Origin: Candidatus Nomurabacteria bacterium
GTDB taxonomy: Bacteria > Patescibacteriota > Minisyncoccia > Phycocordibacterales > UBA9973
DNA: 64,000 bases
NCBI GenBank assembly: GCA_943350875.1
Contig: CALRAL010000003.1
Coordinates: 25,174-89,173 of the forward strand
Direction of reading: 5' to 3'
The notes under the pieces were generated by a model. That model worked only from the letters and a program-made list of their open reading frames with translations. It made no database searches and was not told the DNA's origin. Shown here piece by piece: positions 89 through 43,347 of this stretch. Numbering within the stretch: position 1 is the first letter of the stretch; the number at the start of each line of letters is the position of its first letter. The position numbers and the translations under genes were made by a program.

Positions 89-2101
89 TTATATCAAAAA
101 TGCTACTAAAAGCAAAGCCACAATGTTCAAGATTTTTATCATTGGATTGATAGCAGGACCGGCAGTGTCTTTGTAAGGGTCTCCAACAGTGTCGCCAGTG
201 ATAGCTGCTTTGTGCGCATCGCTTCCTTTACCACCAAAGTGTCCCTTTTCAATATGCTTCTTGGCATTATCCCAAGCGCCTCCACCTGAGGTCATTGAGA
301 TAGCTACGAAAAGTCCAGTGATGATAGAACCAACCAAAAGTCCACCGAGGGCTACTGGTCCTAGGATAAAGCCAACTAAAATAGGAGTGATAACGGGAAT
401 AAGAGCAGGCAGAATCATTTGCTTGATAGCGCTAGTAGTCACCAAGTCAACACATTTGCCGTATTCTGGCTTGCCAGTGCCTTCCATGATGCCTTTGATA
501 TCTCTAAATTGTCGGCGGACTTCTTCTACGACTTTTCCAGCTGTTTTACCTACGGCTTCCATACAAAGTGCACCAAAATAATATGGCAAAAGTCCACCAA
601 TGAAAAGTCCAGCGATTACTTTTGGATCTTCAAGAGTAAAATTCAAATGGACTCCTGCGTTTAAAAATTCTTGAGTATAAGAAGAGAACAACACCAAAGC
701 TGCAAGTCCGGCTGAACCGATGGCATATCCTTTGGTGACAGCTTTAGTGGTGTTGCCGACAGCATCGAGAGCGTCTGTTACTTCACGAACTTTTTCATCC
801 ATTCCAGACATTTCTGCTATCCCTCCAGCATTGTCCGTGATTGGTCCATAAGAATCAATAGCTACGATAATTCCTGTCATTGAGAGCATGCTCATGGCTG
901 CGATAGCAATACCGTAAAGTCCAGCAAAATTATATGAAAGTAAAATACCAGCGACGATGACGAGTAAAGGCCAAGCAGTGGATTTCATTGAAATAGCCAA
1001 ACCTTGAATAATATTTGTGCCGTGTCCTGAGACAGAAGATTCAGCAATGGATTTCACCGGAGCGTATTTTGAAGATGTGAAATATTCTGTGATCACTACG
1101 AGCAGAGCAGTGATGACAAGCCCGACTATAGAAGCGAAGAAAAGATTGTTTACACTATAAATACCATTTTCACTCATCAAAATTTTAGTAATTGGATAAA
1201 AGAGGATAGCAGAGATGACACCGGCACTGACTAGACCTTTGTAAAGAGCATTCATGATGTTTGGAGTTTCACCTTCTTTTTTGGATTTGCCTAATCGGAC
1301 GAACCAAGTTCCAATGATCGAAGCGAGAGTGGCTGCTCCGCCTAAAACTAACGGATAAACGAGAGCATTTTCCATTTTAGTAAATAAAAGAGAGCCGAGG
1401 AGCATCGCTGCGATAGAAGTGACAGCATAAGTCTCAAAAAGGTCTGCTGCCATACCTGCACAATCCCCAACATTGTCTCCGACATTGTCTGCTATTACTG
1501 CCGGGTTTCTTGGATCATCTTCTGGAATACCAGCTTCTAATTTACCGACGAGATCTGCGCCCACATCTGCAGCCTTGGTAAAGATTCCTCCACCAAGTCT
1601 AGCAAACACTGAGATCAAAGATCCTCCAAAACCGAAACCAATTAGAGCTTTTATATCATTTGTTAAAGCGAAAAATCCTGCTACTCCCAAAAGGGCTAGT
1701 CCAACGACGAGGAGTCCGGTGACTGATCCACCCTTAAAAGCAACGGACAATGCACTTGCTAATCCGTCCTTGGCAGCTTCTGCAGTACGGACATTAGCAC
1801 GGACAGAAACATTCATTCCGATATATCCTGCTAAAGCAGAGAGTATTGCGCCTAGTATAAATCCGAGTGCAGAAGTGATACCTAAACCAAGCCATAATAT
1901 GATAAATAGAACAACAGCTATAGCACCGATAGTTTTGTATTGTCTATTTAGATATGCTTTCGCGCCTTCCGCTATGGCCGAAGCGATAGATTGCATTTTT
2001 TCATTCCCAGCGCTTTTTTTTAAGATAGATTTTGCTAAAAATATTCCATAAACGATAACTACCACTGAACTTATAATTGCAAACAATAAAAATTGATTCA
2101 T
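89..2101 (-). CDS. hppA: Membrane-bound proton- or sodium-translocating pyrophosphatase (V-type H+-PPase)
   Basis: The 670-aa ORF is a multi-pass membrane protein. It carries the characteristic H+-PPase motifs [26 protein letters not shown] and [17 protein letters not shown]. Confidence 0.9.
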
Positions 2102-2124
2102 CTTTTTATTTTTTAACTAATAAT

Positions 2125-3375
2125 TTATTCTTTTTCCCCGCCTGCATCGCTATGCGAAACATTGCGGGCAGGTTCAATTATTTCAACTTTTTCTCCGTCA
2201 GTGGAAGCAAGCACTTTGCCTGCCTGCGCAGGCAGGCCATTACCTTTGATGTCTATTCTCCATCCAGTAAGTTTAGCGGCTAGACGTACATTTTGGCCAC
2301 CTTTACCGATGGCGAGTGATAATTGATCATCAGAGACTTCTACTACTGCTTTGTGTTCTTTTTCATCTACTTTAATAGAGATAACTTTGGCTGGGGAGAG
2401 GGAATTAGAAACGAATTGTTTTGGATCGGCAGTCCAAGGGATAATGTCTATTTTTTCTCCACCCAATTCTTGAGTAATAGTATTTACTCTGGTACCTTTT
2501 TGTCCAACACAAGAACCAACTGGGTCGATATGTTCATCGTTAGAGAAGACTGCTATTTTTGAGCGAGCACCTGCTTCACGAGCGATTGATTTTATCTCTA
2601 CCACGCCATTTTCTATCTCTGGTGCTTCGATGGCAAAGAGTTTCTCGATGAATTTAGGATGGGTCCTAGAAAGCCTCAAATTTATTCCTCTTGGTGAGTC
2701 TTCTACAGAATACAAATATGCGCGGATTCTCTGACCTCGGGCAAAATATTCCCCAGGGATTTGTTCCTCAGCAGGGAGGATGCCAGTTGCGCGGTTGAAA
2801 TCAATATAAACATTCCCTCTTTCCACTTTTTGCACTATGCCAGAAATAACTTCTCCTTCTTTGGTGCCATATTCGTCTATGATGGATGTACGTTCTGCTT
2901 CACGGATCTTTTGGATTATGACCTGCTTTGCAGTTTGAGCTGCGATACGTCCATAATCCTCTTTTGGATCCAGTGGAAAGATTATCTCATCATTCAGTTC
3001 CACCCCCTTTTTTATCTTTCTGGCATCTTCGAGCATGATGTGATGTTCTGCATTGAAACGGACTCTTTCATCATCACTCTTAAAGGAATATTCCCCGCCT
3101 GCATCGCTATGCGAAGCATTGCGGGCAGGAGCTTCTTCTCCTTCCTCTTCTATTTTAGCAATAGTTTCATCTACTACTATTTTCACTTGGTAGAAATCAG
3201 CTTTGCCATTCTCCAAATCAAATTTAGCCCTTATTATTTGGCCTTTTTTACCGTAATCTTTCTTGTAAGCGGCGGCCATGGCTTGCTCGATAGCGTCCAA
3301 TATTTTCTCTTTTGGAATTTTCCTTTCTTCCTCTAGTTGCTCTAATGCTGATTTGAATGTTTTTAGATCTAACAT
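2125..3375 (-). CDS. nusA: Transcription termination/antitermination factor NusA. It carries two in-frame palindromic-element insertions.
   Basis: The 416-aa ORF has a NusA N-terminal domain, S1 and tandem KH domains (GGEKIDIIPW, IGKGGQNVRLAAKLTGWRIDI). The peptide PARNxSHSDAGGE occurs twice, each encoded by a copy of a 37-bp palindromic repeat. Confidence 0.9.
   Translation of the reverse strand: MLDLKTFKSALEQLEEERKIPKEKILDAIEQAMAAAYKKDYGKKGQIIRAKFDLENGKADFYQVKIVVDETIAKIEEEGEEAPARNASHSDAGGEYSFKSDDERVRFNAEHHIMLEDARKIKKGVELNDEIIFPLDPKEDYGRIAAQTAKQVIIQKIREAERTSIIDEYGTKEGEVISGIVQKVERGNVYIDFNRATGILPAEEQIPGEYFARGQRIRAYLYSVEDSPRGINLRLSRTHPKFIEKLFAIEAPEIENGVVEIKSIAREAGARSKIAVFSNDEHIDPVGSCVGQKGTRVNTITQELGGEKIDIIPWTADPKQFVSNSLSPAKVISIKVDEKEHKAVVEVSDDQLSLAIGKGGQNVRLAAKLTGWRIDIKGNGLPAQAGKVLASTDGEKVEIIEPARNVSHSDAGGEKE
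2136..2172. repeat. Family-1 palindromic element (CCCCGCCTGCATCGCTATGCGAAACATTGCGGGCAGG), in-frame in the 3' end of nusA
   Basis: It is near-identical to the copy at 3093-3129 and related to 44821-44860. The sequence is an imperfect hairpin and is GC-rich in an AT-rich context. Confidence 0.8.
3093..3129. repeat. Family-1 palindromic element, second copy, in-frame inside nusA
   Basis: It differs from 2136-2172 at one position and encodes APARNASHSDAGGE in the nusA frame. Confidence 0.8.
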
Positions 3376-3402
3376 AATATTGTTTCGTTTAATGATTGTT
3401 AA

Positions 3403-3446
3403 TTTTTACCTGCCCGCCAAAGCTTTAGCGTCGGCGGGTAAAAATA
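3403..3446. repeat. Family-1-related hairpin (TTTTTACCTGCCCGCC...GGCGGGTAAAAA) in the nusA upstream intergenic region
   Basis: It shares the CCTGCCCGC...AGCG...GGCGGG core with the in-gene family-1 copies. It forms a stem-loop but has no following U-run, so it is not a canonical terminator. Confidence 0.5.
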
Positions 3447-3558
3447 AAAGCCCCAGTTGTGACAGGACTTATACTTGTCTATATTATCACAGTTTACTTT
3501 TTCTTGCAACATACGATTTTATCCACAGATTTTGTTTGTTTCTTAATTTCTTTTTTAG

Positions 3559-3921
3559 TTGTATAATATACATGATATGTCTAGAAAAAATATAATAATA
3601 TTATTTTCTGTCTTAATATTGATATTTACCTTTTTCTTCTTTTATGTGATGGACAAGTCTATTTTCTCTGGTTTTAAATTCGGTGGTCCTAGTGAAGAAT
3701 TAAAAGACTTTTCTCAAGATCCTAAATATACCACCAAGCAAGCACAAACAATTAGAGAACTTGAGAATTTTAAACCCATCCCTAGTCAATCTGTTTCAGG
3801 GGTTGAAATCAAACCAAGAACTCCAGAAGAAATAGTGAAAGAACTTAATTCTTTTAAACCTACAAAAAAAACTTCTCTCAGCGCTAGTCAATTAAAAGCC
3901 CTAAATGATTTTCACCCATAA
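3559..3921 (+). CDS. Small membrane-anchored hypothetical protein
   Basis: 120-aa ORF with an N-terminal TM helix (IIILFSVLILIFTFFFFYV) and low-complexity KP-rich repeats. Confidence 0.3.
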   Translation: MYNIHDMSRKNIIILFSVLILIFTFFFFYVMDKSIFSGFKFGGPSEELKDFSQDPKYTTKQAQTIRELENFKPIPSQSVSGVEIKPRTPEEIVKELNSFKPTKKTSLSASQLKALNDFHP

Positions 3922-3923
3922 TT

Positions 3924-4910
3924 ATGAGCAATTTTAAAAAAATATTTATATTAAGCGCTATTGTAGTGGCTTTTGGTATTTATATTGGTTTTTATGGTTT
4001 TGCAATGTCTGCTAATACACAAAGTCTTTCGGGATATGGGTGGAATGCAGATACATCAACAGGGGGAGTAGGTGGTATGGGTTGGCTTGGTTTTAATGGA
4101 GCTAATTACGGCGTAGATTTAGATAAAGATGCATATTTATTAGGTTATGCTTGGTCCAGTAATTATGGTTGGATTAAATTTGGTGGTCTTGCTGATTTTC
4201 CTGTAGGTGCTGGAACCACAACAGCCAATGCTCAGTTAATTAATGGTGAATTGACAGGCTGGGCGAGAGCTTGCAGTACTTTTCAATCTGGTTGTTCTGG
4301 TGATTATTATTATGGCAATAGTCATCCTGATCCGTTAATTTTTAATGACTTGTCGACTAATCCTTACCTTGGTGGTTGGGATGGATGGATAAGTTTAAGT
4401 GGAAATAGTTTAAATGGGGGCAAATACGGTGTGACTTTTTCTGGTAAAGGTGGAGTATCAAATGCTACCGGTTATGCTTGGGGTGGTGGAGGATATAATA
4501 TAGGTTGGATTGATTTTTCTCAAGTGAAGTTAGGAATTATTGATACTTCTTATTTTACTTTAGTATCAGATAAAACTTTTGTTACTGCTTCAACAGATTC
4601 ATTTAATTTAACTTTACAAGGTTCAGGATTGAATTCAAACAGTGGTGTTGCTACTGGTGGTGATCCAAACTGGATAAATCAAGGATTAAATTTATGCCCT
4701 AATTCCGGTTCACCTGTTACATATGGTCCTCGTAGTTTAAGTGAGATTAGTTCTACAACTACATCTGCAACCTATACACTTACATGTACTACTCTTGCTG
4801 GGAATTTTTTAACAAAGAGCGTGACAATAACTTTAAGAGATGTCAATTTTTGCATAAATAATCCGACTGATCCGACTTGTAAAAAGACACCACATTACAT
4901 TGAGAGATAG
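3924..4910 (+). CDS. Secreted or membrane-anchored repeat protein (GYAWxxxxGWIxF repeats)
   Basis: 328-aa ORF with a signal/TM N-terminus, a Gly/aromatic-rich repeated motif and a Cys-rich C-terminus. Confidence 0.35.
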   Translation: MSNFKKIFILSAIVVAFGIYIGFYGFAMSANTQSLSGYGWNADTSTGGVGGMGWLGFNGANYGVDLDKDAYLLGYAWSSNYGWIKFGGLADFPVGAGTTTANAQLINGELTGWARACSTFQSGCSGDYYYGNSHPDPLIFNDLSTNPYLGGWDGWISLSGNSLNGGKYGVTFSGKGGVSNATGYAWGGGGYNIGWIDFSQVKLGIIDTSYFTLVSDKTFVTASTDSFNLTLQGSGLNSNSGVATGGDPNWINQGLNLCPNSGSPVTYGPRSLSEISSTTTSATYTLTCTTLAGNFLTKSVTITLRDVNFCINNPTDPTCKKTPHYIER

Positions 4911-4955
4911 TGTGTTATAATTATTAAATAACTTTATAAATTTAACTTTTAAAAA

Positions 4956-6863
4956 ATGAATCAAAAATCAAAAATATTTTTAAAATCAATTCTTTTACTT
5001 GTCGTTGTTCTTTTTTCAATAAAAGTTTTTGCTGTAGCTATTAATAGTTGGACAGAGCCTACTCTTTCACCGCCTGGTGGCAATATGCTATCTCCTGTTA
5101 ATGTGGGAGGAACACAACAATATAAAGCTGGATCATTGATTTTAGATGGATTTCGATCTTTAGGTGTTGGTCTTTTTGATGGCTATATTAAAATTGGTAA
5201 TACCTCATCTAGTTGTGATTCTGGAACTGCAGGGGCACAAAAATATAATGGCACCAAAATGCAATATTGTGATGGCGTAGGGTGGAAAGATCTTGGCGGA
5301 TCAAGTACTATTAGCGGAACAGTAAATAATATTGCTATGTTTACCCCTTCTGGAACAAGTATTGGAAATTCTTCAATAACTCAAGATGGCAATACTGGTT
5401 TTGTGGGGATTGGGTTGGCTACAGGTGTATCGGCAGCTAAATTGCTTGATGTGGCTGGAGGAATTAAAACTAGAAGTATTCAGATTACAGGACTAGCGGG
5501 AGATCCATCACCTGTAGGGAAATGGTTAAAAGCAGGCATTAATGGTTTTGCTACTTGGGAAGATCTTCCCGCAGCTGCGGCTGGGGTTTGGGTTCCTGCA
5601 ACCGGAGGTAGTATTAATTACGTCGGTGGGAATGTGGGGATTGGGACAAGTGATCCAAAATCATTATTACATGTATATGGGAGTGCAACTTTAAAAAATC
5701 TTCATTTTGGAGAATCTTTAGGGGCTAATTATATACAAAGTGGAAATTCTCAAATAACTGATGGAAGTTGGCTTCCCCTATTTTTTGGACCATACGGATC
5801 AGGTATAGCTGATGCAAAAATGATGATAGATGGGAGTGGAAATGTTGGGATCGGAACGACAACACCAAACTCTAAACTTACTGTAGCAGGAGATCTTCGC
5901 CTTGAAGGTACTACTGCTTATCCAAGTCTTTTCCCTTTAGATCCAACAGAAAATGTGAATCGTATAACTTGGCCTGGGCACTTTCTCCTTTTGCAAAATA
6001 ATGGTTATGCCCATAACCGTGTAGTTATAGCTCCAGGTGGAGCAACTAGTGGTACAACTGATTCTGAACTTAAAATGTATAGTGCAAGTGCTTCAGCAAC
6101 ACCAGTATATACACAAAAAATTGGTTTTGATACCGGTGGTAATAATTTTTTCATGGGTAATTTGGGGATTGGGACAAGTTCACCAAGCTCGAAATTAACT
6201 GTTGCTGGTACCATCGAATCAACTACTGGTGGTATTAAGTTTCCAGATGGAACTGTGCAAGCTACAGCTTATGTGCCTCATGGCAGCCAAAACTTTTTTT
6301 CGCCAGGAACTTTTCCCTTAACTGTTCCATATGGTGTATCTGAAGTTTTTGTCACAATGAGTGGCGGCGGTGGTGGCGGCGGTGGTGGCGGCGGCAATTG
6401 TCGGGGAGATCATAGTAATTATGCAGGTGCTGGCGGCGGCGGCGGCGGCTCTGCTGGTCCATCTTCTAGGACAAGTTTAACTGTGACACCTAACCAATCT
6501 TACGCGATTGTAGTTGGTTCTGGTGGTTCTGGTGGTCAGGGTGGTAACGGTGGTACTTCCTGTCAAAACAATGCTGGAAATGCTAACGCTGGTCTTGCTA
6601 GTTCTTTTGGATCTTTATTTACAGTGTCTGGTGGTGGAGGTGGTTATAGAGGTGAAGCGGGTAATCTTACTGGCGCTTCTCCTGGATCTGGTGGTCCTGC
6701 TGGCTCCGGCGGTTCTTCTGGTTCCGAAGGTTCTGGTACGTCTGGTGGTACTGGGGCTACTGATGGTTATGGGCATGGCGGTAATGGCGGTAATGGTAGT
6801 AGTGCAGGTAATGGGTCATCTGGTTCTAGTGGTTCACCTGGTTTTATTTCTATAGACTGGTAA
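4956..6863 (+). CDS. Secreted surface protein with tail-fibre-like GNVGIGTxxPxxKLxVAG repeats and a C-terminal Gly-rich, collagen- or PGRS-like low-complexity region
   Basis: 635-aa ORF with a signal peptide and repeated NVGIGTTTPNSKLTVAGD/NLGIGTSSPSSKLTVAG motifs. The long (GGY)n tracts at 6361-6450 encode poly-Gly. Confidence 0.4.
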   Translation: MNQKSKIFLKSILLLVVVLFSIKVFAVAINSWTEPTLSPPGGNMLSPVNVGGTQQYKAGSLILDGFRSLGVGLFDGYIKIGNTSSSCDSGTAGAQKYNGTKMQYCDGVGWKDLGGSSTISGTVNNIAMFTPSGTSIGNSSITQDGNTGFVGIGLATGVSAAKLLDVAGGIKTRSIQITGLAGDPSPVGKWLKAGINGFATWEDLPAAAAGVWVPATGGSINYVGGNVGIGTSDPKSLLHVYGSATLKNLHFGESLGANYIQSGNSQITDGSWLPLFFGPYGSGIADAKMMIDGSGNVGIGTTTPNSKLTVAGDLRLEGTTAYPSLFPLDPTENVNRITWPGHFLLLQNNGYAHNRVVIAPGGATSGTTDSELKMYSASASATPVYTQKIGFDTGGNNFFMGNLGIGTSSPSSKLTVAGTIESTTGGIKFPDGTVQATAYVPHGSQNFFSPGTFPLTVPYGVSEVFVTMSGGGGGGGGGGGNCRGDHSNYAGAGGGGGGSAGPSSRTSLTVTPNQSYAIVVGSGGSGGQGGNGGTSCQNNAGNANAGLASSFGSLFTVSGGGGGYRGEAGNLTGASPGSGGPAGSGGSSGSEGSGTSGGTGATDGYGHGGNGGNGSSAGNGSSGSSGSPGFISIDW

Positions 6864-6931: not shown

Positions 6932-8680
6932 ATGCAAATCAATCAGGAACAATTGAAGAAATTTATTTTGGAGGCAGGATTAATTTCTCGTTCTGATCTA
7001 GAGGCTGAGGAAAAAAAGGCAGGGGGAAATAAGCAAAGTTTTGGAGATACTCTCTTGTCAGATGGAAAAATTTCTGAGGCAGATCTAAAAAAGATGGAGG
7101 CGTATGTGCTAGGGATTCCTTTTGTAAGTTTAGCAACAGAGAAGATTGATTTCTCTATACTTTCTTTTATCCCTGAACCAATAGCGCGCAATTACAATAT
7201 TATCGCTTACAAAAAGACTGATACAAGTCTCGAAGTGGCGATGTTAGATATAGATAATTTGCCGATAATTGATTTTGTAAAAAAGCGTTCAGGCCTCAAA
7301 GTCTTACCACGACTCACTGATTCTGCTTCTATAAAATCTGCTTTGCTTCAGTATAAGAAAAGTCTACAGGCTGAATTTAGTGACATCATTCAAAAAGAAT
7401 CAAACTCGCTTGACGGCTCTCTGAAAGACGAAGTTGAAGAATCAGAAGAGGAATTAAAGGAGATGGCAGATGATTTGCCGGTGGTAAAGATAGTGGATTC
7501 TCTTGTTTCTCATGCAATTTTACAAAATGCGTCTGATATACATATCGAACCAGGGGAGAATGATCTGACAGTGAGGTACAGGATAGATGGGATACTACAT
7601 GACGCGATGGTACTCGACAAGAAAGCAAGTGCTGGTATCACTGCTCGCATAAAAGTTCTTTCCAATTTGAAACTTGATGAAAAAAGACTGCCTCAAGATG
7701 GTAGGTTTAAAATTGATCAAAATGGTCAACGTGTTTCTTTCCGTGTTTCTACTTTGCCGACATTTTATGGAGAGAAAACTGTTATCAGAATATTGCGAGA
7801 AAGCTCACATGGATTTTCCTTAGAGGGTCTTGGTTTTCATGGAGAGGCGTTAGAGAGGATTCATGATTCACTAAAACAAAAGACAGGCATGGTGCTTGCC
7901 GCTGGGCCGACGGGTTCTGGTAAGACGACTACTCTCTACACCATGCTCGATATGTTGAACAAGCCAGATGTAAATATTTCTACTGTTGAAGATCCTATCG
8001 AATATCAGATGCCGAGGATAAATCAGACCCAAGTGAAGTCTGAAATTGGTCTTACTTTTGCCAATGGACTCCGCTCACTCCTACGTCAAGATCCAGATGT
8101 AATAATGGTGGGGGAGATTCGTGATAAAGAGACGGCTGGACTAGCGGTCAATGCTTCACTCACTGGGCACTTGGTGCTATCTACTATCCATACAAACTCC
8201 GCATCTGGAGCTATTCCTAGAATGATAGACATGGGAGTGGAACCATTTTTGATAATTTCTACTGTAAAAACAATTATTGCTCAGAGACTGGTGCGTAAAT
8301 TGACTTCAGGTAAAAAAGAATATTTTTTGTCTTCGGCTGAAATAAAAAACATGGCGAAATATGTTGATTTAGAAAAAATGCTTAGGATTTTAAAAGAAGA
8401 AAAAGTTATAGGACCGAATGCAGTTTGGGATAAAATACCTTTTTATAAACCAGTCAAGGATGCTTCTTCAGAAGATGGATATTCTGGTCGGGTAGGTATA
8501 CACGAAGTGTTAAAAGTTACATCGACTATAAAAGAAATGATCATAAAAGGGTCGTCAGAAGATGAGATAGAGACTCAGGCTAAAAAAGAAGGAATGACAA
8601 CTATGCTTGAAGATGGGATTTTTAAAGCTATATCTGGGGAGACATCTATCGAAGAAGTCTTTCGTGTTATTTCCGAATAA
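6932..8680 (+). CDS. pilB: Type IV pilus assembly ATPase PilB (GspE family)
   Basis: 582 aa with the N-terminal GSPII domain, Walker A GPTGSGKTTT, Asp box and Walker B (VDPDVIMVGEIRD), and the conserved histidine box. Confidence 0.85.
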   Translation: MQINQEQLKKFILEAGLISRSDLEAEEKKAGGNKQSFGDTLLSDGKISEADLKKMEAYVLGIPFVSLATEKIDFSILSFIPEPIARNYNIIAYKKTDTSLEVAMLDIDNLPIIDFVKKRSGLKVLPRLTDSASIKSALLQYKKSLQAEFSDIIQKESNSLDGSLKDEVEESEEELKEMADDLPVVKIVDSLVSHAILQNASDIHIEPGENDLTVRYRIDGILHDAMVLDKKASAGITARIKVLSNLKLDEKRLPQDGRFKIDQNGQRVSFRVSTLPTFYGEKTVIRILRESSHGFSLEGLGFHGEALERIHDSLKQKTGMVLAAGPTGSGKTTTLYTMLDMLNKPDVNISTVEDPIEYQMPRINQTQVKSEIGLTFANGLRSLLRQDPDVIMVGEIRDKETAGLAVNASLTGHLVLSTIHTNSASGAIPRMIDMGVEPFLIISTVKTIIAQRLVRKLTSGKKEYFLSSAEIKNMAKYVDLEKMLRILKEEKVIGPNAVWDKIPFYKPVKDASSEDGYSGRVGIHEVLKVTSTIKEMIIKGSSEDEIETQAKKEGMTTMLEDGIFKAISGETSIEEVFRVISE

Positions 8681-36577: not shown

Positions 36578-36796
36578 TTAACCGCGTGGTGGAAATGGAT
36601 CGTTTCCAAAAGAGTTTCTTTCACGAATTTTGCCATCTCGTCCGTGGATGAGAAGTTCAACTTGGTATGCTATTGCAAGTGATGTACCAGAATCTATGAT
36701 TTCTGATTGTGTCTTTGCTGTAAATACCGGATATGGATTGTGTTCTTGTTTGAGTGCCCAGTTTTGTCCGTTTTTTACTACATGTAGATTACTCAT
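36578..36796 (-). CDS. DUF2188-like small protein
   Basis: 72 aa with the C-terminal LIHGRDGKIRERNSFGNDPFPPRG signature, which I recall as typical of the DUF2188 family. Called from memory of the family consensus. Confidence 0.35.
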   Translation of the reverse strand: MSNLHVVKNGQNWALKQEHNPYPVFTAKTQSEIIDSGTSLAIAYQVELLIHGRDGKIRERNSFGNDPFPPRG

Positions 36797-36951: not shown

Positions 36952-37118
36952 ACTTGAACGAAGCTCATGAACTCTGGCAAGAGCTTTAACTTTAACTTCA
37001 CCACTCAGCTAGGCCTTACCTATCAATTAACAAGGCCCAAAATCAATCTACTTTACTCAACTAAAGTGTAGAATGGTTTTTGGGGTTCTGTGAATTATCA
37101 TTACTGTGATAGACTTAG
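36952..37118 (+). repeat. Direct repeat copy A of an approximately 170-bp repeat (AACGAAGCTCATGAACTCTGGCAAGAGCTTTAACTTT ... ATCAATCTACTTTACTCAACTAAAGTGTAGAATGG...)
   Basis: Approximately 85-90% identical to copy B at 37352-37520. It contains a degenerate CTAGGC..CCTA hairpin. Confidence 0.7.
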
Positions 37119-37127
37119 CAAGTGAAA

Positions 37128-37304
37128 GAAGAAAATAATGTTGCCTATATAGACGGAGCTAACTTGCACAATGGTGTGGAAACTTTAGATTGGGAATTTG
37201 ATTACAAACGCTTCAGAGTATGGTTAAAAGAAAAATACAGTGTTAAGCAAGCTTATTTATTTCTAGGATTAATTCCAAAATATAAAGATCTTTGAATAGT
37301 AAGA
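37128..37304 (+). pseudogene. Truncated NYN-domain gene fragment (VKEENNVAYIDGANLHNGVETLDWEFDYKRFRVWLKEKYSVKQAYLFLGLIPKYKDL*)
   Basis: I translated it by hand. It is homologous to the N-terminal 60 aa of the NYN protein at 10021..10542, has a GTG start and a premature stop, and is flanked by the 170-bp direct repeats. Confidence 0.45.
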
Positions 37305-37351: not shown

Positions 37352-37520
37352 GGATTAGATGTAAACGAAGCTCATGAACTCTGGCAAGAGTTTTAACTTT
37401 CATTCTATGAATTGCTAGGCAAGACCTAGCAATTACAATTAACAAGGCCCAGAATCAATCTACTTTACTAAACTAAAGTGTAGAATGTTTTTTTGATTCT
37501 GTAAATCGTCATAGTAATTT
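37352..37520 (+). repeat. Direct repeat copy B of the approximately 170-bp repeat, containing the GCTAGGCAAGACCTAGC hairpin
   Basis: See copy A. Its internal hairpin is identical to the rpsR terminator core at 57466-57482. Confidence 0.7.
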
Positions 37521-37536
37521 TAATATTTCAGAGAGC

Positions 37537-37830
37537 TTATGATTTAGTCTTGAATGGTCGTTTGTTTGCTTCTTTTAGAATTCTAAGTGTTGCTTGTACT
37601 GAAAGGTTCTCGCTGGTAAGAAGCACTAATCTATCATTCAACTGATTAAGTAATGGGCTTAAAAACTCATCTGCCCATGATGGCGACAATGTCAAAACAC
37701 CAGCGAAATCTATTTCTAGTTCTTCGTCTTTAGGAAACTCACGCAAGGTCGGAGTAAATGCTTTGAAAGCCTCACTGCCCAATTCTCGTGATATTAATGT
37801 CTTTCCAAATTTTTCTAATTGTAATTTCAT
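37537..37830 (-). CDS. STAS-like DUF4325-type small protein, the putative partner of the upstream GHKL ATPase
   Basis: 97 aa with an anti-sigma-antagonist-like fold signature (ELEIDFAGVLTLSPSWADEFL). It is immediately downstream of 37855..38610 on the same strand. Confidence 0.45.
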   Translation of the reverse strand: MKLQLEKFGKTLISRELGSEAFKAFTPTLREFPKDEELEIDFAGVLTLSPSWADEFLSPLLNQLNDRLVLLTSENLSVQATLRILKEANKRPFKTKS

Positions 37831-37854
37831 ATATTTTAAAAATTATTAAACTAC

Positions 37855-38610
37855 TTAAAATTCTATTTTTGCTAAACAGCCTCGTACGATACGCTGACCA
37901 CGCGTAACATGAAACACTTTGTCTGGACTACTCATACGTACTTCGGCATCACCACTTTTATAAAATAAATCTATTGGCTGATCAGTAACGACTTCTCTGA
38001 CAAGTTTCAAACCGTTCCCGCGCTTCTCCGGCGCACGCCCAGAAATGAATTCTGTAAAGGCGACTTCCACGGCAGCGACATGGCTCGGAAGCTCCGGCCG
38101 AATTTGCCGTAATGTTTCTAAAATGCCCAATCCTCTATCGGCAAGAACAATGATCCGTTTTTCCAGATCGTAGCCAAAGAATATTCCCGCGGTGTCTGGC
38201 CATTTGCCTAAGTTGTGAGCAAACGAGTTATCACCAATCTCCCCAGTAATCAAAGTGATCAAAGAATACAACTGCTCAAACCCTGGCTTTCCCAATAATG
38301 CATTTTGCATCTTAATCAGTCTGGCATTAAAAATAGAACTTGTCGGACAGTAAAACGTCCCCGGGAACTCAGTCCCATTTTCTATCCAATCGGATGCAAA
38401 CTTTATCAAATCGCTAGCAAATATTTCCAAGTCTTTTTCACGGTAATATCGATGAGTACCCCCGTCCTTTTTAATCGGTAGCAGTTTACCGCTTTCGTCC
38501 CAACGACGAAGCGTTTGCAAGGAAATCCCTAGATATTCAGCTGCCTGGCTGATTGTAAGTAATTTTTCATCCATATAATTAAGGATACCATAATATACAA
38601 ATCTATACAA
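37855..38610 (-). CDS. MerR-type HTH fused to a GHKL (HATPase_c, RsbW-like) ATPase/kinase domain
   Basis: LTISQAAEYLGISLQTLRRWDESGKL is the MerR/excisionase HTH. The ATPase shows N-box ITGEIGDNSFAHN and G-boxes LADRGLGI and RGNGLKLV. The real start is probably the internal Met at about 38574, since the annotated start is TTG. Confidence 0.55.
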   Translation of the reverse strand: MYRFVYYGILNYMDEKLLTISQAAEYLGISLQTLRRWDESGKLLPIKKDGGTHRYYREKDLEIFASDLIKFASDWIENGTEFPGTFYCPTSSIFNARLIKMQNALLGKPGFEQLYSLITLITGEIGDNSFAHNLGKWPDTAGIFFGYDLEKRIIVLADRGLGILETLRQIRPELPSHVAAVEVAFTEFISGRAPEKRGNGLKLVREVVTDQPIDLFYKSGDAEVRMSSPDKVFHVTRGQRIVRGCLAKIEF

Positions 38611-38650
38611 CTAGAAGATAAATCTATACAAAAATATACCAATCTATACA
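38600..38650. promoter_or_regulatory. Three direct AATCTATACA repeats spaced 20-21 bp apart, immediately upstream of the MerR-GHKL gene
   Basis: Repeats at 38600, 38621 and 38641 have about two-helical-turn spacing, which is iteron- or operator-like. Confidence 0.4.
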
Positions 38651-38777
38651 TTTCTTAGTAAAAACTACCCTTAAAATAGTTTCGTATAATCAGCTAGGCC
38701 TTGCCTAGCAGTTTTGCTCGGTTTTAGGCTGATAACCGTGAAAAATGGCATTAAAAACACAGCTTTTCACGATTATG

Positions 38778-38805
38778 TTGACAAAAGCGTGAAAATGACT
38801 ATAAT
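38778..38805 (+). promoter_or_regulatory. Consensus sigma70-type promoter (TTGACA, 16-bp spacer, TATAAT) for the Fic gene, overlapped by three CGTGAAAA repeats
   Basis: TTGACA lies at 38778-38783 and TATAAT at 38800-38805. The CGTGAAAA octamer occurs at 38742, 38764 (reverse complement) and 38787. Confidence 0.55.
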
Positions 38806-38807
38806 AG

Positions 38808-39710
38808 ATGTATATGGCGAAAGTCCCTGCAGTATTTAATAAAATAAATTCTCTTCGCGAGAGGTACTGGAAAGCTTTCAATAACAAAGAATCTCTAATT
38901 AAACTTGTTAGCGAGTCAGAAATTGCTGAGCAAGTGTATAACTCAAATGCTATCGAAAATAGTACTCTTACACTTGAAGAAACAGAAAAAATTTTATTAC
39001 AGATTGACCTAGATCGATATATAAGTGAGCGCGAGATTTTTGAAGCCAAAAATCTCGCGCGAGTGGTGTCATATATTGAGAAGCGAGCAAAAGAACAGGA
39101 GTTAACACTTGAAGTTGTATTATCACTTCACAAGATGCTTATTTCAAATATTCGTGATGAAATTGCAGGCAGGTTTAGAAAAGAAAAAGAATTTGTGCGA
39201 GTGGGTAGTCACATTGCTCCCGCACCGCAAGAAATACTTGAGAGGTTGGGAAATATGCTCGCAGAATATAATGCAAATAATCATGAAAATATTGTAAAAT
39301 GTATTGCACGATTGCATTTAGATTTTGAGTATATCCATCCATTTATCGATGGCAATGGTTGTATTGGTCGCGCGCTTAATAATTATCTTTTGATTCGTGA
39401 AGGATTTGTCCCCATCAATATTAAATTTATAGATCGCAAAAAATATTATGATGCATTTAAAGAATTTGATGAAAAAGGTAAAATAGAAATAATGGAAGAA
39501 ATTGTTGCCAAAGCTCTGACCAATAGTTATCACAAGCGTTTGGCATATTTAGAAGACAAGAAAATTATAACATTAGTGGAATATGCAAAATCTCAAAAAA
39601 TTTCTCATTCAAATTTGATAAATAAAGCTAAACGACAAACTATTGAAGCTTTTATGGAACGAGGGATTTGGAAAATAGGAGTTGAGTATAAGAAAAAATT
39701 ATATGAATGA
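38808..39710 (+). CDS. Fic/Doc family protein (AMPylator or toxin-like)
   Basis: 300 aa with the canonical Fic motif HPFIDGNGCIGRAL. The start may be the ATG at 38814, giving a leaderless transcript. Confidence 0.8.
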   Translation: MYMAKVPAVFNKINSLRERYWKAFNNKESLIKLVSESEIAEQVYNSNAIENSTLTLEETEKILLQIDLDRYISEREIFEAKNLARVVSYIEKRAKEQELTLEVVLSLHKMLISNIRDEIAGRFRKEKEFVRVGSHIAPAPQEILERLGNMLAEYNANNHENIVKCIARLHLDFEYIHPFIDGNGCIGRALNNYLLIREGFVPINIKFIDRKKYYDAFKEFDEKGKIEIMEEIVAKALTNSYHKRLAYLEDKKIITLVEYAKSQKISHSNLINKAKRQTIEAFMERGIWKIGVEYKKKLYE

Positions 39711-42700
39711 AGAAAATGTAAAAAATAATAAATCAGAAGTAGCTCTCAGGGAGGAGAGGGTTTTGGAATTTTGGGAGCAAAATAAAATATTTGAAAAAGT
39801 TTCAAAAAAGGTAGCGAAGAAGGGTGACTATGTATTTTATGACGGTCCGCCGACGGCCAACGGCATGCCGGGGCTACACCATGTGGAGCCACAATCTTTC
39901 AAGGATTTAATTCCTCGATACAAAACTATGCGAGGGTATAATGTCTTGCGTAAAGCGGGCTGGGATACACACGGGCTTCCAGTAGAGCTTCAAGTAGAAA
40001 AAGCGCTTGGGCTAAAATCTAAAAAAGATATTGAAAAATACGGAGTAGAACTTTTTAATCAGAAATGCAAAGAAAGTGTTTGGCAATATAAAGCAGAATG
40101 GATGAAAATGCGTACTCGCATGGGTTTCTGGACTGATCTGGAGAATGCATACGTAACTTATACGAATAATTATATTGAAGCCTTGTGGGGAGTAGTGCAA
40201 AAGGCAGATGAGAGAGGATTCTTGTATAAAGATTTCAAGATCTTGCCTTGGTGCCCTCGCTGTGGGACAGCTCTCTCTAGCCATGAGCTCAATCAGCCTG
40301 GGGCATACAAAGATGTAAAAGATCTGTCTGTTTATGTGAAATTTAAAATTATTGGTGGCAATGATGCTTTTGCGGGGTCGCTGTCTCCGTCTGTTGACGG
40401 AGCGCTGCCTCTCGGCTCGTCAGCCTGCGAGACACCCCGACAAAAGCACATTGCCACCAATTTTTACATTCTTGCTTGGACAACAACACCTTGGACTTTG
40501 CCGGGGAATGTGGCTTTGGCAGTGGGGAATGATATTGATTACGTAAAAGTGAAATTTGGTGGGGAGATTTTGATTTTAGCAGAGGCTAGACTTTCTGTTT
40601 TGGGTGGCGAATATGAAATTTTGGAAAAATTGAAAGGCAAAGATTTAATTGGTTTAGAATATGAACCACTTTTTCCATATTTGTCCGCCCAAGGCGGATC
40701 CGCCTCTGGCGGAAAAGATTTTAGTGAAAGTATAAAAAATGCTTTTAAAATTTATCCAGCAGACTTTGTGACGACCACAGACGGCACAGGAGTGGTGCAT
40801 ACAGCTGTGATGTATGGAGTGGATGATTTTGAGCTTGGAACTAAATTAAATTTACCGAAATATCATCTCGTAAATGAAGAAGGTAAATTTATAAAAGGTA
40901 CAGGATTCTTGGAGGGGCGATATGTTAAGGAAGCTGACGAGAATGGCAAGCCGACACTCGCTGTGGACATCATTGATGACTTAACCAAGCGTGGACTTTT
41001 GTTTAAAAAAGAAAATCACTTGCACAGCTATCCACATTGTTGGCGTTGTGATACACCACTTATTTATTACGCTCGGATGTCTTGGTATTTTAAGATGAGT
41101 GCGCTACGTAGCCAATTAATGGCTGGAAATGAAAAGATACATTGGGAGCCAGAACATATCAAACACGGACGTTTTGGTGAGTGGCTTGATGGTATAAAAG
41201 ACTGGGCCATTTCTCGGGACAGATATTGGGGTACACCGATACCAGTCTGGCAGAAAAAAGATGGCACATATAAAACTATCGGCTCACTTTCAGAACTAAA
41301 AAAATATACTAAAAAGTCAGGTAATAAGTATTTTGTCATGCGACATGGGGAAGCAGAAAATAATATGGGAGAATTATATAAAGTTGATCCGACTCAAAGT
41401 TTTAATCTTACTGAAAAAGGGTGTCAACAGGTTTTAGAAAATATTAAAAATTTTAAAGAAAAAGTAGATGTTATTATTTCTTCCCCATTTGAACGAACAA
41501 GAGAAACTACAAAAATAGTTTGTGAATTTTTAGGTTTTCCGTTAGATAAAGTTATTTATGATGATAGAGTGCAAGAGTGGGAAGTAAGCTCTATGTTTAA
41601 TGGTAAGACACGTAAAGAGATGAAACAATATTATGATAATGATTATATGTATGCTCCACACGAAAGTCTTGCTGATGCAGAAAGTTTTATCCATGTTGTA
41701 AAAAGAACTGGGGATTTCCTTTATGACATAGAATCTAAATATAAAGATAAAACTATTTTACTTGTTAGCCATGCTGGGGCAGGCAGGGCTATGACGTTTG
41801 TCTCGAATGGAGCTACTTTTACTGATTTACCAAATAGACCAGATATAACCAAGATGCTAGATAATGCAGAAATCAAAAAACTTGATTTCGTGCCACTTCC
41901 TCACAATCAAAATTATGAACTTGATTTTCATAAACCATATATTGATGAAATAATTTTAGAAGAAAACGGAGAACAAATGTCTCGCACACCGGAGGTGATG
42001 GATGTGTGGTTTGATTCAGGGGCTATGCCTTATGCACAGAGTCATGTGTTAGGTACTCCGATGGACTTCTCTCCAGCCAAGGCAGACTACATATCTGAAG
42101 CGATAGATCAGACTCGTGGATGGTTCTATACTTTGCATGCAGTTATAAATTTGGTAAATAATAAATCAAGTAATGCTTTTAAAAATGTTATTTGTCTCGG
42201 GCATATTTTGGATGCGAATGGGCAGAAAATGTCTAAATCAAAAGGCAATGTAGTGGACCCATGGATGATGTTTGATAAATACGGGGCGGACACCCTCCGC
42301 TTATGGATGTATTCTGTGAATCAGCCAGGGGAGTCAAAGAACTTTGACGAGAAAAATGTTTTGGAATTAAATAGACAAGTTTTTGGCTTGCTTTATAATA
42401 TTGTGGCTTTTTATGAGCTTTATCGGGATAAAGATTTAGAAATTATACAAGGACAGTCCTTAAGAGAGTTTCCCCAAGGACTGTCCTTTAAAAATATTTT
42501 AGATATTTGGATTCTTGCTAGATTAAACGAGTTGATAGAACTCACTACTAAAAATCTAGATAGTTTTAAACTTTTAGAGCCGACTCGAGCTATGAAAGAT
42601 TTTATAAATGATCTCTCTACATGGTATCTGCGTCGTTCTAGAGATAGATTAAAAGATGAAGATAAAAATGCAAAACTTACACTGTATTTTGTATTAAAAA

Positions 42701-43347
42701 ATCTGGCAAAACTTATGGCACCATTTGCTCCCTTTTCTGCGGAAGATATCTGGCAGAAATTGAAAAATGAGGAAGATGTAGAAAGTGTGCATTTGGTAGA
42801 TTGGCCAAAAGTGTCAAAGGGCATCTTTGACATGTTTAGCAAAAAAGAGGAGAAAGTCTTGAAAAATATGCAAATTGTGCGTGATATTGTTTCTCTTGGG
42901 CTTGAAGCGAGGCAGAAAGCGGGGATAAAAGTCCGTCAACCGCTCGCTACGCTCAAGTGTAAAGTAGAAAGTGGAAAGTTGTCGAGTGAATACTTGGAAC
43001 TTATTAAAGACGAGTTGAACGTAAAAGAAGTATTATTAGAGCCTCGAGCCTCGAACCTAGAAACTAATGTAGAACTCGATACAAGAATAACTCCAGAATT
43101 AAAATCTGAAGGAGATTATAGGGAGCTTGTGCGAGCAATACAGGATATGAGGAAAAAGATGGGGCTGACTCCGAGTGATGTGGTGTCTTTCTCCTTTGAC
43201 ACAAATGAAGAAGGAAAAAAGTTAATCCAGAATTTTGAAAAGGAACTAAAAAAAGTAATTCTTGCTTCAGAAATAAAATTCATGGCAAATGATGGCGACC
43301 CAATCGTTATAGATGAACTAATATTTAAAATAAAAGTGGTAAAATAA
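39682..43347 (+). CDS. ileS: Isoleucine--tRNA ligase with an inserted histidine-phosphatase (PGAM-like) domain and two short in-frame palindromic-element insertions
   Basis: 1221 aa with HVEPQ (HIGH-like), TTTPWTLPGN, HKPYIDE, KMSKSKGN and the anticodon-binding domain. The phosphatase insertion is bounded by FVMRHGEAENN...SSPFERTRET...LLVSHAG at about 41300-41925. Confidence 0.9.
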   Translation: MSIRKNYMNEENVKNNKSEVALREERVLEFWEQNKIFEKVSKKVAKKGDYVFYDGPPTANGMPGLHHVEPQSFKDLIPRYKTMRGYNVLRKAGWDTHGLPVELQVEKALGLKSKKDIEKYGVELFNQKCKESVWQYKAEWMKMRTRMGFWTDLENAYVTYTNNYIEALWGVVQKADERGFLYKDFKILPWCPRCGTALSSHELNQPGAYKDVKDLSVYVKFKIIGGNDAFAGSLSPSVDGALPLGSSACETPRQKHIATNFYILAWTTTPWTLPGNVALAVGNDIDYVKVKFGGEILILAEARLSVLGGEYEILEKLKGKDLIGLEYEPLFPYLSAQGGSASGGKDFSESIKNAFKIYPADFVTTTDGTGVVHTAVMYGVDDFELGTKLNLPKYHLVNEEGKFIKGTGFLEGRYVKEADENGKPTLAVDIIDDLTKRGLLFKKENHLHSYPHCWRCDTPLIYYARMSWYFKMSALRSQLMAGNEKIHWEPEHIKHGRFGEWLDGIKDWAISRDRYWGTPIPVWQKKDGTYKTIGSLSELKKYTKKSGNKYFVMRHGEAENNMGELYKVDPTQSFNLTEKGCQQVLENIKNFKEKVDVIISSPFERTRETTKIVCEFLGFPLDKVIYDDRVQEWEVSSMFNGKTRKEMKQYYDNDYMYAPHESLADAESFIHVVKRTGDFLYDIESKYKDKTILLVSHAGAGRAMTFVSNGATFTDLPNRPDITKMLDNAEIKKLDFVPLPHNQNYELDFHKPYIDEIILEENGEQMSRTPEVMDVWFDSGAMPYAQSHVLGTPMDFSPAKADYISEAIDQTRGWFYTLHAVINLVNNKSSNAFKNVICLGHILDANGQKMSKSKGNVVDPWMMFDKYGADTLRLWMYSVNQPGESKNFDEKNVLELNRQVFGLLYNIVAFYELYRDKDLEIIQGQSLREFPQGLSFKNILDIWILARLNELIELTTKNLDSFKLLEPTRAMKDFINDLSTWYLRRSRDRLKDEDKNAKLTLYFVLKNLAKLMAPFAPFSAEDIWQKLKNEEDVESVHLVDWPKVSKGIFDMFSKKEEKVLKNMQIVRDIVSLGLEARQKAGIKVRQPLATLKCKVESGKLSSEYLELIKDELNVKEVLLEPRASNLETNVELDTRITPELKSEGDYRELVRAIQDMRKKMGLTPSDVVSFSFDTNEEGKKLIQNFEKELKKVILASEIKFMANDGDPIVIDELIFKIKVVK
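40351..40460. repeat. MITE-like 110-bp GC-rich element with perfect 13-bp terminal inverted repeats (ATTGGTGGCAATG / CATTGCCACCAAT), in-frame in ileS just upstream of TTTPWTLP
   Basis: The terminal and nested inverted repeats (CTCCGTC/GACGGAG) are visible directly. It encodes IGGNDAFAGSLSPSVDGALPLGSSACETPRQKHIATN. Confidence 0.7.
40685..40717. repeat. Family-4 palindromic element (CCGCCCAAGGCGGATCCGCCTCTGGCGGAAAAG), in-frame in ileS
   Basis: It shares GGATCCGCCTTGGGCGGAAAA with the copies at 57605-57628 and 62428-62451 and encodes SAQGGSASGGKD. Confidence 0.7.

Follow-up and report, generated by a model that had tools for sequence, protein, structure and literature searches.

A widespread and exceptionally conserved kinase-STAS gene pair of Patescibacteria, probably controlled through its own direct-repeat operator

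A pair of adjacent genes, hereafter A and B, is widespread and exceptionally conserved in Patescibacteria. A encodes a protein in which an N-terminal helix-turn-helix (HTH) is joined to a GHKL-type kinase domain, as assigned from its predicted structure and motifs, and B encodes a small STAS protein. The best reading of the pair is that of a new architectural variant of the CapK/CapS and partner-switching systems, in which the DNA-binding domain is carried by the kinase and appears to be matched to an array of direct repeats in the promoter of the A-B operon.

The window, i.e. the whole 64-kb stretch of DNA that was analysed, contains one such pair; its ORF list places the two genes co-directionally on the minus strand. 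Gene A (37855..38574, stop codon at 37855-37857) codes for an HTH-GHKL protein of 239 aa. The ORF was listed as 37855..38610; we set the start at the ATG at 38572-38574, because almost all homologues are 239 aa long and begin there, and because the conservation upstream of this ATG is of the non-coding kind. Gene B (37537..37830), 24 nt downstream of A, codes for a single-domain STAS/DUF4325 protein of 97 aa. Upstream of the pair, a Fic gene (38808..39710) diverges from A-B, and an HKD+Snf2 helicase and a type IIG restriction-modification enzyme are encoded on the plus strand. Downstream of B there are only decayed fragments and, further on, a DUF2188 gene (the PADLOC candidate PDC-S16). Neither Rfam nor tRNA scans gave any match in the window.

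The MerR-type HTH that a preliminary description had attributed to A was readily recovered: residues 5-52 (38419..38562, minus strand; residues are numbered from Met1) match HTH_17/MerR in Pfam with E-values of 1e-11 to 1e-10. The same segment matches TIGR01764, the excisionase family, and excisionase is also the JGI annotation. BldC is among the closest solved HTHs, and the recognition helix begins near residue 19. The other domain, described beforehand as GHKL and RsbW-like, escaped direct profile search. The window protein had no HATPase_c match in Pfam even at E ≤ 1; the 185 residues beyond the HTH had no match in Pfam, NCBIfam or PADLOC; and comparison with PDB sequences, by single sequence and by profile HMM, returned MerR HTHs only and no GHKL domain. 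Structure and motifs, on the other hand, bore the assignment out. The AlphaFold (AF2) model of A (pLDDT 92.6, pTM 0.82) finds its best structural match in SpoIIAB. When 1.84 billion representative proteins were searched exhaustively with phmmer, only 288 relatives emerged, and an alignment of 46 of them (30-51% identity) has an invariant N-box (E112/N116/H120/N121), G1 box (D146-x-G148-x-G150) and G2 box (R185-G186-x-G188-L189). In these 46 proteins the Pfam matches were weak (HATPase_c_2 in 10, HATPase_c in 3; best E 8.7e-4). Going by the predicted structure and the motifs, we regard the Bergerat fold of A (residues ~101-239; 37858..38274, minus strand) as established, the outcome of direct profile search notwithstanding. 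Between the two domains the model has only two helices (~residues 56-94; 11 and 16 residues) and no STAS domain, and the long coiled-coil helix that might follow the HTH is absent from it.

For B, the proposed STAS-like/DUF4325 identity held, although the window protein itself scores right at the threshold (23.1 bits for a Pfam cut-off of 23). Many homologues at 82-92% identity are annotated PF14213 or "STAS-like", and the model of B (pLDDT 87) shows the beta-alpha-beta-alpha-beta-alpha STAS topology, with SpoIIAA as the best structural match. PDB sequence searches with B retrieved VapS only, and weakly (PDB 9z7o, B profile, E 0.09). B consists of the STAS domain alone, with no DNA-binding domain. 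Its alignments reveal a conserved S49-P50-S51-W52-x-D-E-F motif at the N-terminus of helix 2, which begins at residue 50 of the model; S51 is invariant and S49 nearly so. In SpoIIAA-type proteins the phosphorylated serine lies at the N-terminus of helix 2. The alignments, the start of the helix and the alignment with S54 of CapS (see below) all designate Ser51 (codon 37678..37680, minus strand) as the predicted phospho-acceptor.

The promoter region of the pair has a distinctive layout. Three exact copies of the 10-mer AATCTATACA, and no others, are present in the window; they lie at 38600, 38621 and 38641, with spacings of 21 and 20 nt. Read on the coding (minus) strand as TGTATAGATT, these sites are R3 (38600..38609), R2 (38621..38630), which lies 21 nt upstream of R3, and R1 (38641..38650), a further 20 nt upstream. 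A degenerate fourth repeat, R0 (AGGGTAGTTT, 38662..38671, minus strand), precedes R1 by 21 nt (pair 38671/38650, one mismatch); in the family consensus its position is occupied by a weakly conserved agtT motif. R3 overlaps the -35 hexamer of the predicted A-B promoter (38582..38610, minus strand), which is made of TTGTAT (38605-38610), a 17-nt spacer, the TG of an extended -10 (38589-38590) and TATCCT (38582-38587). The ATG comes only 7 nt after the -10, so that the mRNA is predicted to be leaderless or nearly so and transcription would start at or near the ATG.

That these repeats are not a chance match follows from the related loci: the same array is found in 158 of the 163 that could be tested (131 distinct sequences). 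When the upstream regions were aligned on the promoter-proximal repeat, a shared arrangement emerged. The family repeat is TGnnTAGaTT, with 20 nt from R1 to R2 and 21 nt from R2 to R3; a strict pattern, applied to 70 loci, showed this 20 + 21 nt spacing in 69 of them, and the distance from R3 to the ATG is 34-35 nt in 54 of the 70. The promoter consensus has R3 inside the -35 element (cTTGtgT), followed by N17 and the extended -10 TG-n-TAnnAT, with the ATG ~7 nt further on. In one divergent clade the leader is longer and contains a GAGG motif. Since a phasing of 20-21 bp corresponds to two helical turns, all the sites should lie on one face of the DNA. In the window, no further paired sites were detected at up to one mismatch from TGnnTAGaTT. 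The promoter of the Fic gene, more than 100 nt away from the array, is flanked by a different palindrome.

The variable bases of the repeat provide a means of asking which protein reads it. Among the 239 columns of the A alignment, those with the highest mutual information with the variable repeat dinucleotide are residues 20, 14 and 19, all of them located in helix 1 of the HTH or in the recognition helix. Asn20 goes with G at base 4 of the repeat (58 of 62 cases) and Asp20 with A (50 of 50); the window protein combines Gln20 with A. In a neighbour-joining tree of the kinase domain alone, 15 changes are counted for residue 20, 17 for the base and only 18 for the joint character, which indicates that residue and base have repeatedly switched together. 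The upstream regions of more distant relatives vary with the type of HTH. A second MerR-type clade keeps TGCATAG direct repeats at other spacings, a variant with an HTH_11-type domain has instead a palindrome (GTTGACAGTTGAC/GTCAACTGTCAAC) over its -35, and no repeats were found upstream of an HTH-less variant. These comparisons strongly support the proposal that the HTH of A reads the repeats, with residue 20 (Gln in the window) as the predicted specificity residue. The preliminary description had singled out the three repeats as an operator; they now appear, with the support of the comparative sequences, as a conserved operator that co-varies with the recognition helix of A.

A and B are an obligate unit. 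Out of 170 loci fetched, 165 could be tested (the contig continues past A), and in all 165 B lies 7-69 nt downstream of A in the same orientation. The pairing extends to a relative with 50% identity, to the second MerR-type clade, to the HTH_11-type variant and to the HTH-less variants of 188-199 aa. The A family amounts to ~2,800 to 4,900 clusters at 90% identity, so that the composition of the locus, first thought unusual, is not rare. The metagenome scan gave close relatives only, and the distant members were taken from matches in the representative library. All the named sources are Patescibacteria, representing no fewer than 20 candidate phyla or classes. A few MAGs carrying the family bear other automated labels.

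Proteins of relatives are 62-92% identical to the window copy, with saturated synonymous sites (median pS 0.73, pN 0.13, dN/dS ≤ 0.06). Even for the 92%-identical relative pS is 0.65, and values of ~0.65-0.73 among the closest relatives rule out recent horizontal spread as the cause of the high identity. The high protein identity is thus the mark of long-term purifying selection and not of recent transfer. GC3 is correlated with flanking GC content (r = 0.51). There is no support for an origin from phages or plasmids: tblastn detected no relative in INPHARED phages or PLSDB plasmids, and the single match in IMG/VR is a locus adjoining a large serine recombinase. One locus (L081) has two copies of A; these are not divergent paralogues but the product of a duplication of 5 kb, their proteins being identical and their promoter regions nearly so.

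To place the pair among known systems, we took the CapK and CapS sequences from the source data of Chambers et al., EMBO J 2026 (PMC13373217). CapK has an HTH-STAS-GHKL architecture and is activated by ssDNA, the sensing of which is proposed to occur at the STAS/GHKL groove; it phosphorylates Ser54 of CapS, a STAS-wHTH protein, which dissolves the CapS dimer and de-represses the downstream immune operon (PMC13373217). In hhalign comparisons, the kinase domain of A aligned with CapK residues 208-337 (E 3.2e-5), which brings the catalytic Asn into register (N116 opposite CapK N218); the alignment of B covers residues 18-74 of CapS (E 2.4e-4) and sets S51 against S54. As a rough control, A aligned with SpoIIAB at E 0.083 and B gave no significant match to SpoIIAA. 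The suggestion that the two genes resemble an RsbW/RsbV pair is supported both by the SpoIIAB/SpoIIAA structural matches and by homology to a kinase-substrate pair studied by experiment, CapK/CapS (PMC13373217).

The similarities to CapK/CapS are extensive: a kinase gene followed by an adjacent STAS gene, an N-terminal HTH on the kinase, autoregulation of the operon (predicted for A-B), a conserved Ser at the start of STAS helix 2, and a frequent location in defence-rich regions. The differences are equally clear. CapK is 368 aa long with a STAS domain between HTH and GHKL, whereas A is 239 aa long and has none; CapS has a wHTH and is a DNA-binding repressor, whereas B is reduced to 97 aa of STAS. 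CapS binds palindromes, while A-B has a phased direct-repeat array matched to the HTH of the kinase. CapK/CapS sits immediately upstream of the immune operon that it controls, whereas the genes downstream of A-B are heterogeneous (at most 6 of 128 per family). Finally, the named A-B members are Patescibacteria, whereas the capKS dataset of PMC13373217 contains no 'Candidatus' organism, and that paper mentions neither DUF4325, nor MerR, nor Patescibacteria. Judged by these alignments, A and B are relatives of CapK and CapS that fail their defining architectures.

Other systems share some of these traits. VapK and VapS control the VapC toxin in the same way as CapK and CapS control their operon, and VapS is comparable to B in being a small, short-tailed STAS protein; it serves as the substrate of a CapK-like kinase (PMC13373217). 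Transcriptional coupling to DUF4325 genes has been reported for the PIN.4 VapC proteins (PMC5499597), and for that reason VapS probably belongs to the DUF4325 family. VapK, however, is a STAS-GHKL protein without HTH, its VapC/PIN gene has no counterpart linked to A-B, and B lacks the C-terminal inhibitory helix of VapS. With SpoIIAB/SpoIIAA and RsbW/RsbV, the pair has in common the N, G1 and G2 boxes, the STAS Ser at the N-terminus of helix 2 and the adjacency of the genes; it departs from them in the fusion of the kinase to a DNA-binding domain and in having no linked sigma factor or PP2C. SpoIIAB and SpoIIAA are the best structural matches of A and B, yet the sequence similarity is marginal. 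As to the HTH, A resembles BldC in having a MerR-type domain without the long dimerisation helix and direct repeats instead of a palindrome. BldC is a 68-residue stand-alone global developmental regulator, whereas the HTH of A is the N-terminal module of a kinase, and the only site identified for it is its own promoter. Classical MerR regulators have a long coiled coil and a palindromic operator within a 19-20-bp spacer; A-B has neither, and its spacer is 17 bp.

We consider it probable that A and B make up a switch of the kinase-STAS type that is self-contained and autoregulated, and that is minimal in comparison with its relatives, CapK/CapS and the SpoIIAB/SpoIIAA-type pairs. Binding of the MerR/BldC-like HTH of A to the four same-face TGnnTAGaTT repeats, in their 20-21-bp phasing, is the strongly supported part of this scheme, on the evidence of the aligned operators and proteins. 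It would probably occur as a head-to-tail cooperative oligomer, the way in which BldC multimers occupy direct repeats (PMC5859096). A would thereby repress its own near-leaderless A-B operon; repression is preferred because the operator lies over the -35 of an intrinsically good promoter, this position being the sole basis for choosing it over activation. The fold, the catalytic motifs and the homology suggest that the GHKL domain would bind B and phosphorylate Ser51, with Ser49 as a possible alternative. By analogy, a stress signal would then set the balance between free, A-bound and phosphorylated B. As for CapK, the signal may be DNA damage, ssDNA or phage infection; A has no equivalent of the internal STAS domain of CapK, the proposed ssDNA sensor, so its signal may also differ from that of CapK. 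The balance of B forms would in turn toggle the oligomeric state of A or its DNA binding, and hence expression of the operon. As the main output, A or B probably interacts with a conserved host target that is not linked to the pair. Since the HTH-less relatives keep the same kinase-STAS pair, the HTH is best seen as an autoregulatory add-on. Several observations go against this explanation: the GHKL domain of A is missed by Pfam and B barely reaches DUF4325, no PP2C, sigma factor or third component is linked to the pair, and deletion of the CapK HTH had no phenotype, the role of that HTH being left open (PMC13373217).

A more specific version can be put forward, tentatively and as a prospect well short of even: A-B would be a stand-alone stress or infection switch of Patescibacteria, not a controller of local genes, and its output would consist in the kinase or the STAS protein binding some highly conserved part of the host that is not linked to the pair, for instance the ribosome, RNA polymerase or the housekeeping sigma factor. 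Such a target would explain how an accessory cassette that changes location is kept at 62-92% identity in spite of saturated synonymous sites.

The opposite view, according to which the pair is a Cap-type controller that senses damage or infection and switches on the neighbouring restriction-modification, Fic or other immune genes, appears unlikely to us. The homology of A and B to CapK and CapS speaks for it, as do the neighbours in the window (Snf2/HKD, type IIG restriction-modification, DUF2188/PDC-S16 and Fic). It is also true that the genes encountered most often downstream of the pair are those for DNA methyltransferases and restriction-modification, and that defence-island contexts are seen for some loci. 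When the neighbours were classified with Pfam, however, no downstream family was present in more than 6 of 128 loci and no upstream family in more than 3 of 126; many neighbours are housekeeping genes, and Fic is found in 2-3 of ~130 distinct loci. Nor did a conserved third gene or effector emerge from the 128 downstream and 126 upstream neighbours compared with Pfam, the downstream ones also with PADLOC. As neighbours are not conserved, the adjacency of Fic and restriction-modification genes in the window is to be regarded as incidental. The remaining features point in the same direction: the 64-kb window contains no second operator array, B has no DNA-binding domain, and the Fic promoter is remote from the repeats. 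The defence role that the preliminary description deduced from gene placement is thus left with little weight once the neighbourhoods of homologues are tabulated, and nothing in this analysis indicates a role in abortive infection.

It is likewise doubtful that A-B is an anti-sigma-type switch, in which the GHKL domain of A would sequester a conserved host protein, e.g. a sigma factor, to be released by unphosphorylated B, with the HTH serving for autoregulation only. This proposal overlaps with the last step of the mechanism favoured above and does not exclude it. Structurally, A and B match anti-sigma kinases and their antagonists best, the persistence of the pair in HTH-less relatives means that its output need not be DNA binding, and these HTH-less members are labelled anti-sigma regulatory factors by JGI. 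A dN/dS of at most 0.06 with saturated dS also fits a conserved host target. Against this, neither a sigma factor nor a PP2C is present among the 25 most frequent Pfam families of the 128 downstream and 126 upstream neighbours or in the flanks of the window, and the A and B sequences are closer to CapK/CapS than to SpoIIAB/SpoIIAA.

Much less probable is a toxin-antitoxin or abortive-infection module, consisting of a kinase toxin with HipA-like logic and of a STAS antitoxin or decoy substrate, similar to VapKSC without VapC. A two-gene cassette, predicted to be autoregulated and found at variable, often defence-rich locations, would be compatible with it; so would the toxin-antitoxin setting in which the related VapK/VapS acts (PMC13373217) and the coupling of PIN.4 VapC proteins to DUF4325 genes (PMC5499597). 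The pair has no toxin-type domain, however, and no PIN gene appears in the neighbour families listed for the 128 downstream and 126 upstream positions; its conservation is far above what is usual for toxin-antitoxin or defence genes, and matches in mobile-element collections are limited to the one in IMG/VR, with none in INPHARED or PLSDB. The notion of an excisionase, or recombination directionality factor, whose HTH would bind direct repeats at an attachment site, is very improbable: Xis proteins typically bind direct repeats, and the HTH_17 and TIGR01764 matches, the JGI annotation and the recombinase next to the IMG/VR locus agree with it, but the repeats lie 34-35 nt from the start codon and overlap the -35 and -10 of the gene itself, recombinases are adjacent in only 2 of 126 loci, and the HTH is fused to a kinase that is always paired with a STAS protein.

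For the Patescibacteria (CPR), a group of mostly uncultured bacteria with tiny genomes, hardly any regulatory circuits have, to our knowledge, been described. The switch favoured here comes with precise predictions as to its operator, promoter, specificity residue and phosphorylation site. It would add a third architecture to the theme set by CapK/CapS and VapKSC, one with the DNA-binding domain on the kinase and a bare STAS partner. The exchange of HTH types among relatives (MerR-type, winged HTH or none), with a corresponding change of operator, suggests that the HTH of CapK may autoregulate its own operon. It is unusual for defence-island genes to be under such extreme purifying selection while their location is not conserved, and this hints at a conserved host target; if that target is indeed an unlinked host component, A-B would be one of the earliest signalling modules to be recognised across this whole lineage of reduced genomes.

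Among the relatives of protein A, the 239-aa HTH-GHKL protein, the N-terminal DNA-binding domain proved interchangeable. As found at loci L169-L172 and L177, the kinase core of the family is preceded by a MerR/HTH_17 domain, an HTH_11 winged helix, an Xre-type HTH_3 domain, or by none of these. Whichever N-terminal domain was present, the kinase core was followed in all checked cases by a gene for a DUF4325 protein of 93 to 103 aa, the counterpart of gene B. The sole relative of A on a viral contig (IMG/VR; locus L088; 48% identity) has a 556-aa large serine recombinase encoded directly upstream, an arrangement located at 3191-5717. At another locus, L081, the A-B cassette and its operator (i.e. 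the direct-repeat array upstream of A) occur twice about 5 kb apart, at 2018-3067 and 7015-8064. The proteins of the two copies are identical and their promoter regions nearly so; the second copy comes either from a recent segmental duplication or from an assembly repeat.

Downstream of B, at a distance of about 740 nt and on the same strand as A-B, lies a gene for a 72-aa DUF2188 protein (36578-36796), for which PADLOC gives a match to its candidate defence family PDC-S16 (E = 3.5e-24); DUF2188 was absent from the recurrent neighbours at the other loci of A-B relatives. The region separating this gene from B contains two copies of a direct repeat of about 125-130 nt (36957-37081 and 37364-37493), in which two segments, of 37 nt (97% identity) and 58 nt (95% identity), are conserved with an offset of 407-412 nt between copies. 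Both copies carry hairpins as well as the 3' end of an ORF that has decayed (...NEAHELWQE[L/F]*), and a truncated NYN-like ORF (37122-37295) sits between them. The whole looks like the remains of a duplicated or degraded gene.

On the other side of A, the end of the divergent Fic gene is overlapped by the start, at 39682, of an isoleucyl-tRNA synthetase-like gene (39682-43347; 1221 aa), the product of which has a His_Phos_1 histidine-phosphatase domain (residues 551-718, E = 2e-23) inserted into its catalytic class I synthetase domain.

The Fic promoter has a perfect -35 hexamer, TTGACA, at 38778, near an inverted pair of the box TTTTCACG(A/G)TTAT, one half on the minus strand (38732-38744) and the other on the plus strand (38764-38776). 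The hexamer is enclosed by a palindrome which the box forms with CGTGAAAA (38788-38795). In the window, the exact box is confined to 38732-38795; with at most one mismatch allowed, 6 occurrences were observed versus 0.5 expected. Among 131 distinct related loci, about 12 likewise have the box, in one orientation or the other, between 100 and 170 nt upstream of gene A. It may be the site of some regulator, or a portable promoter element.
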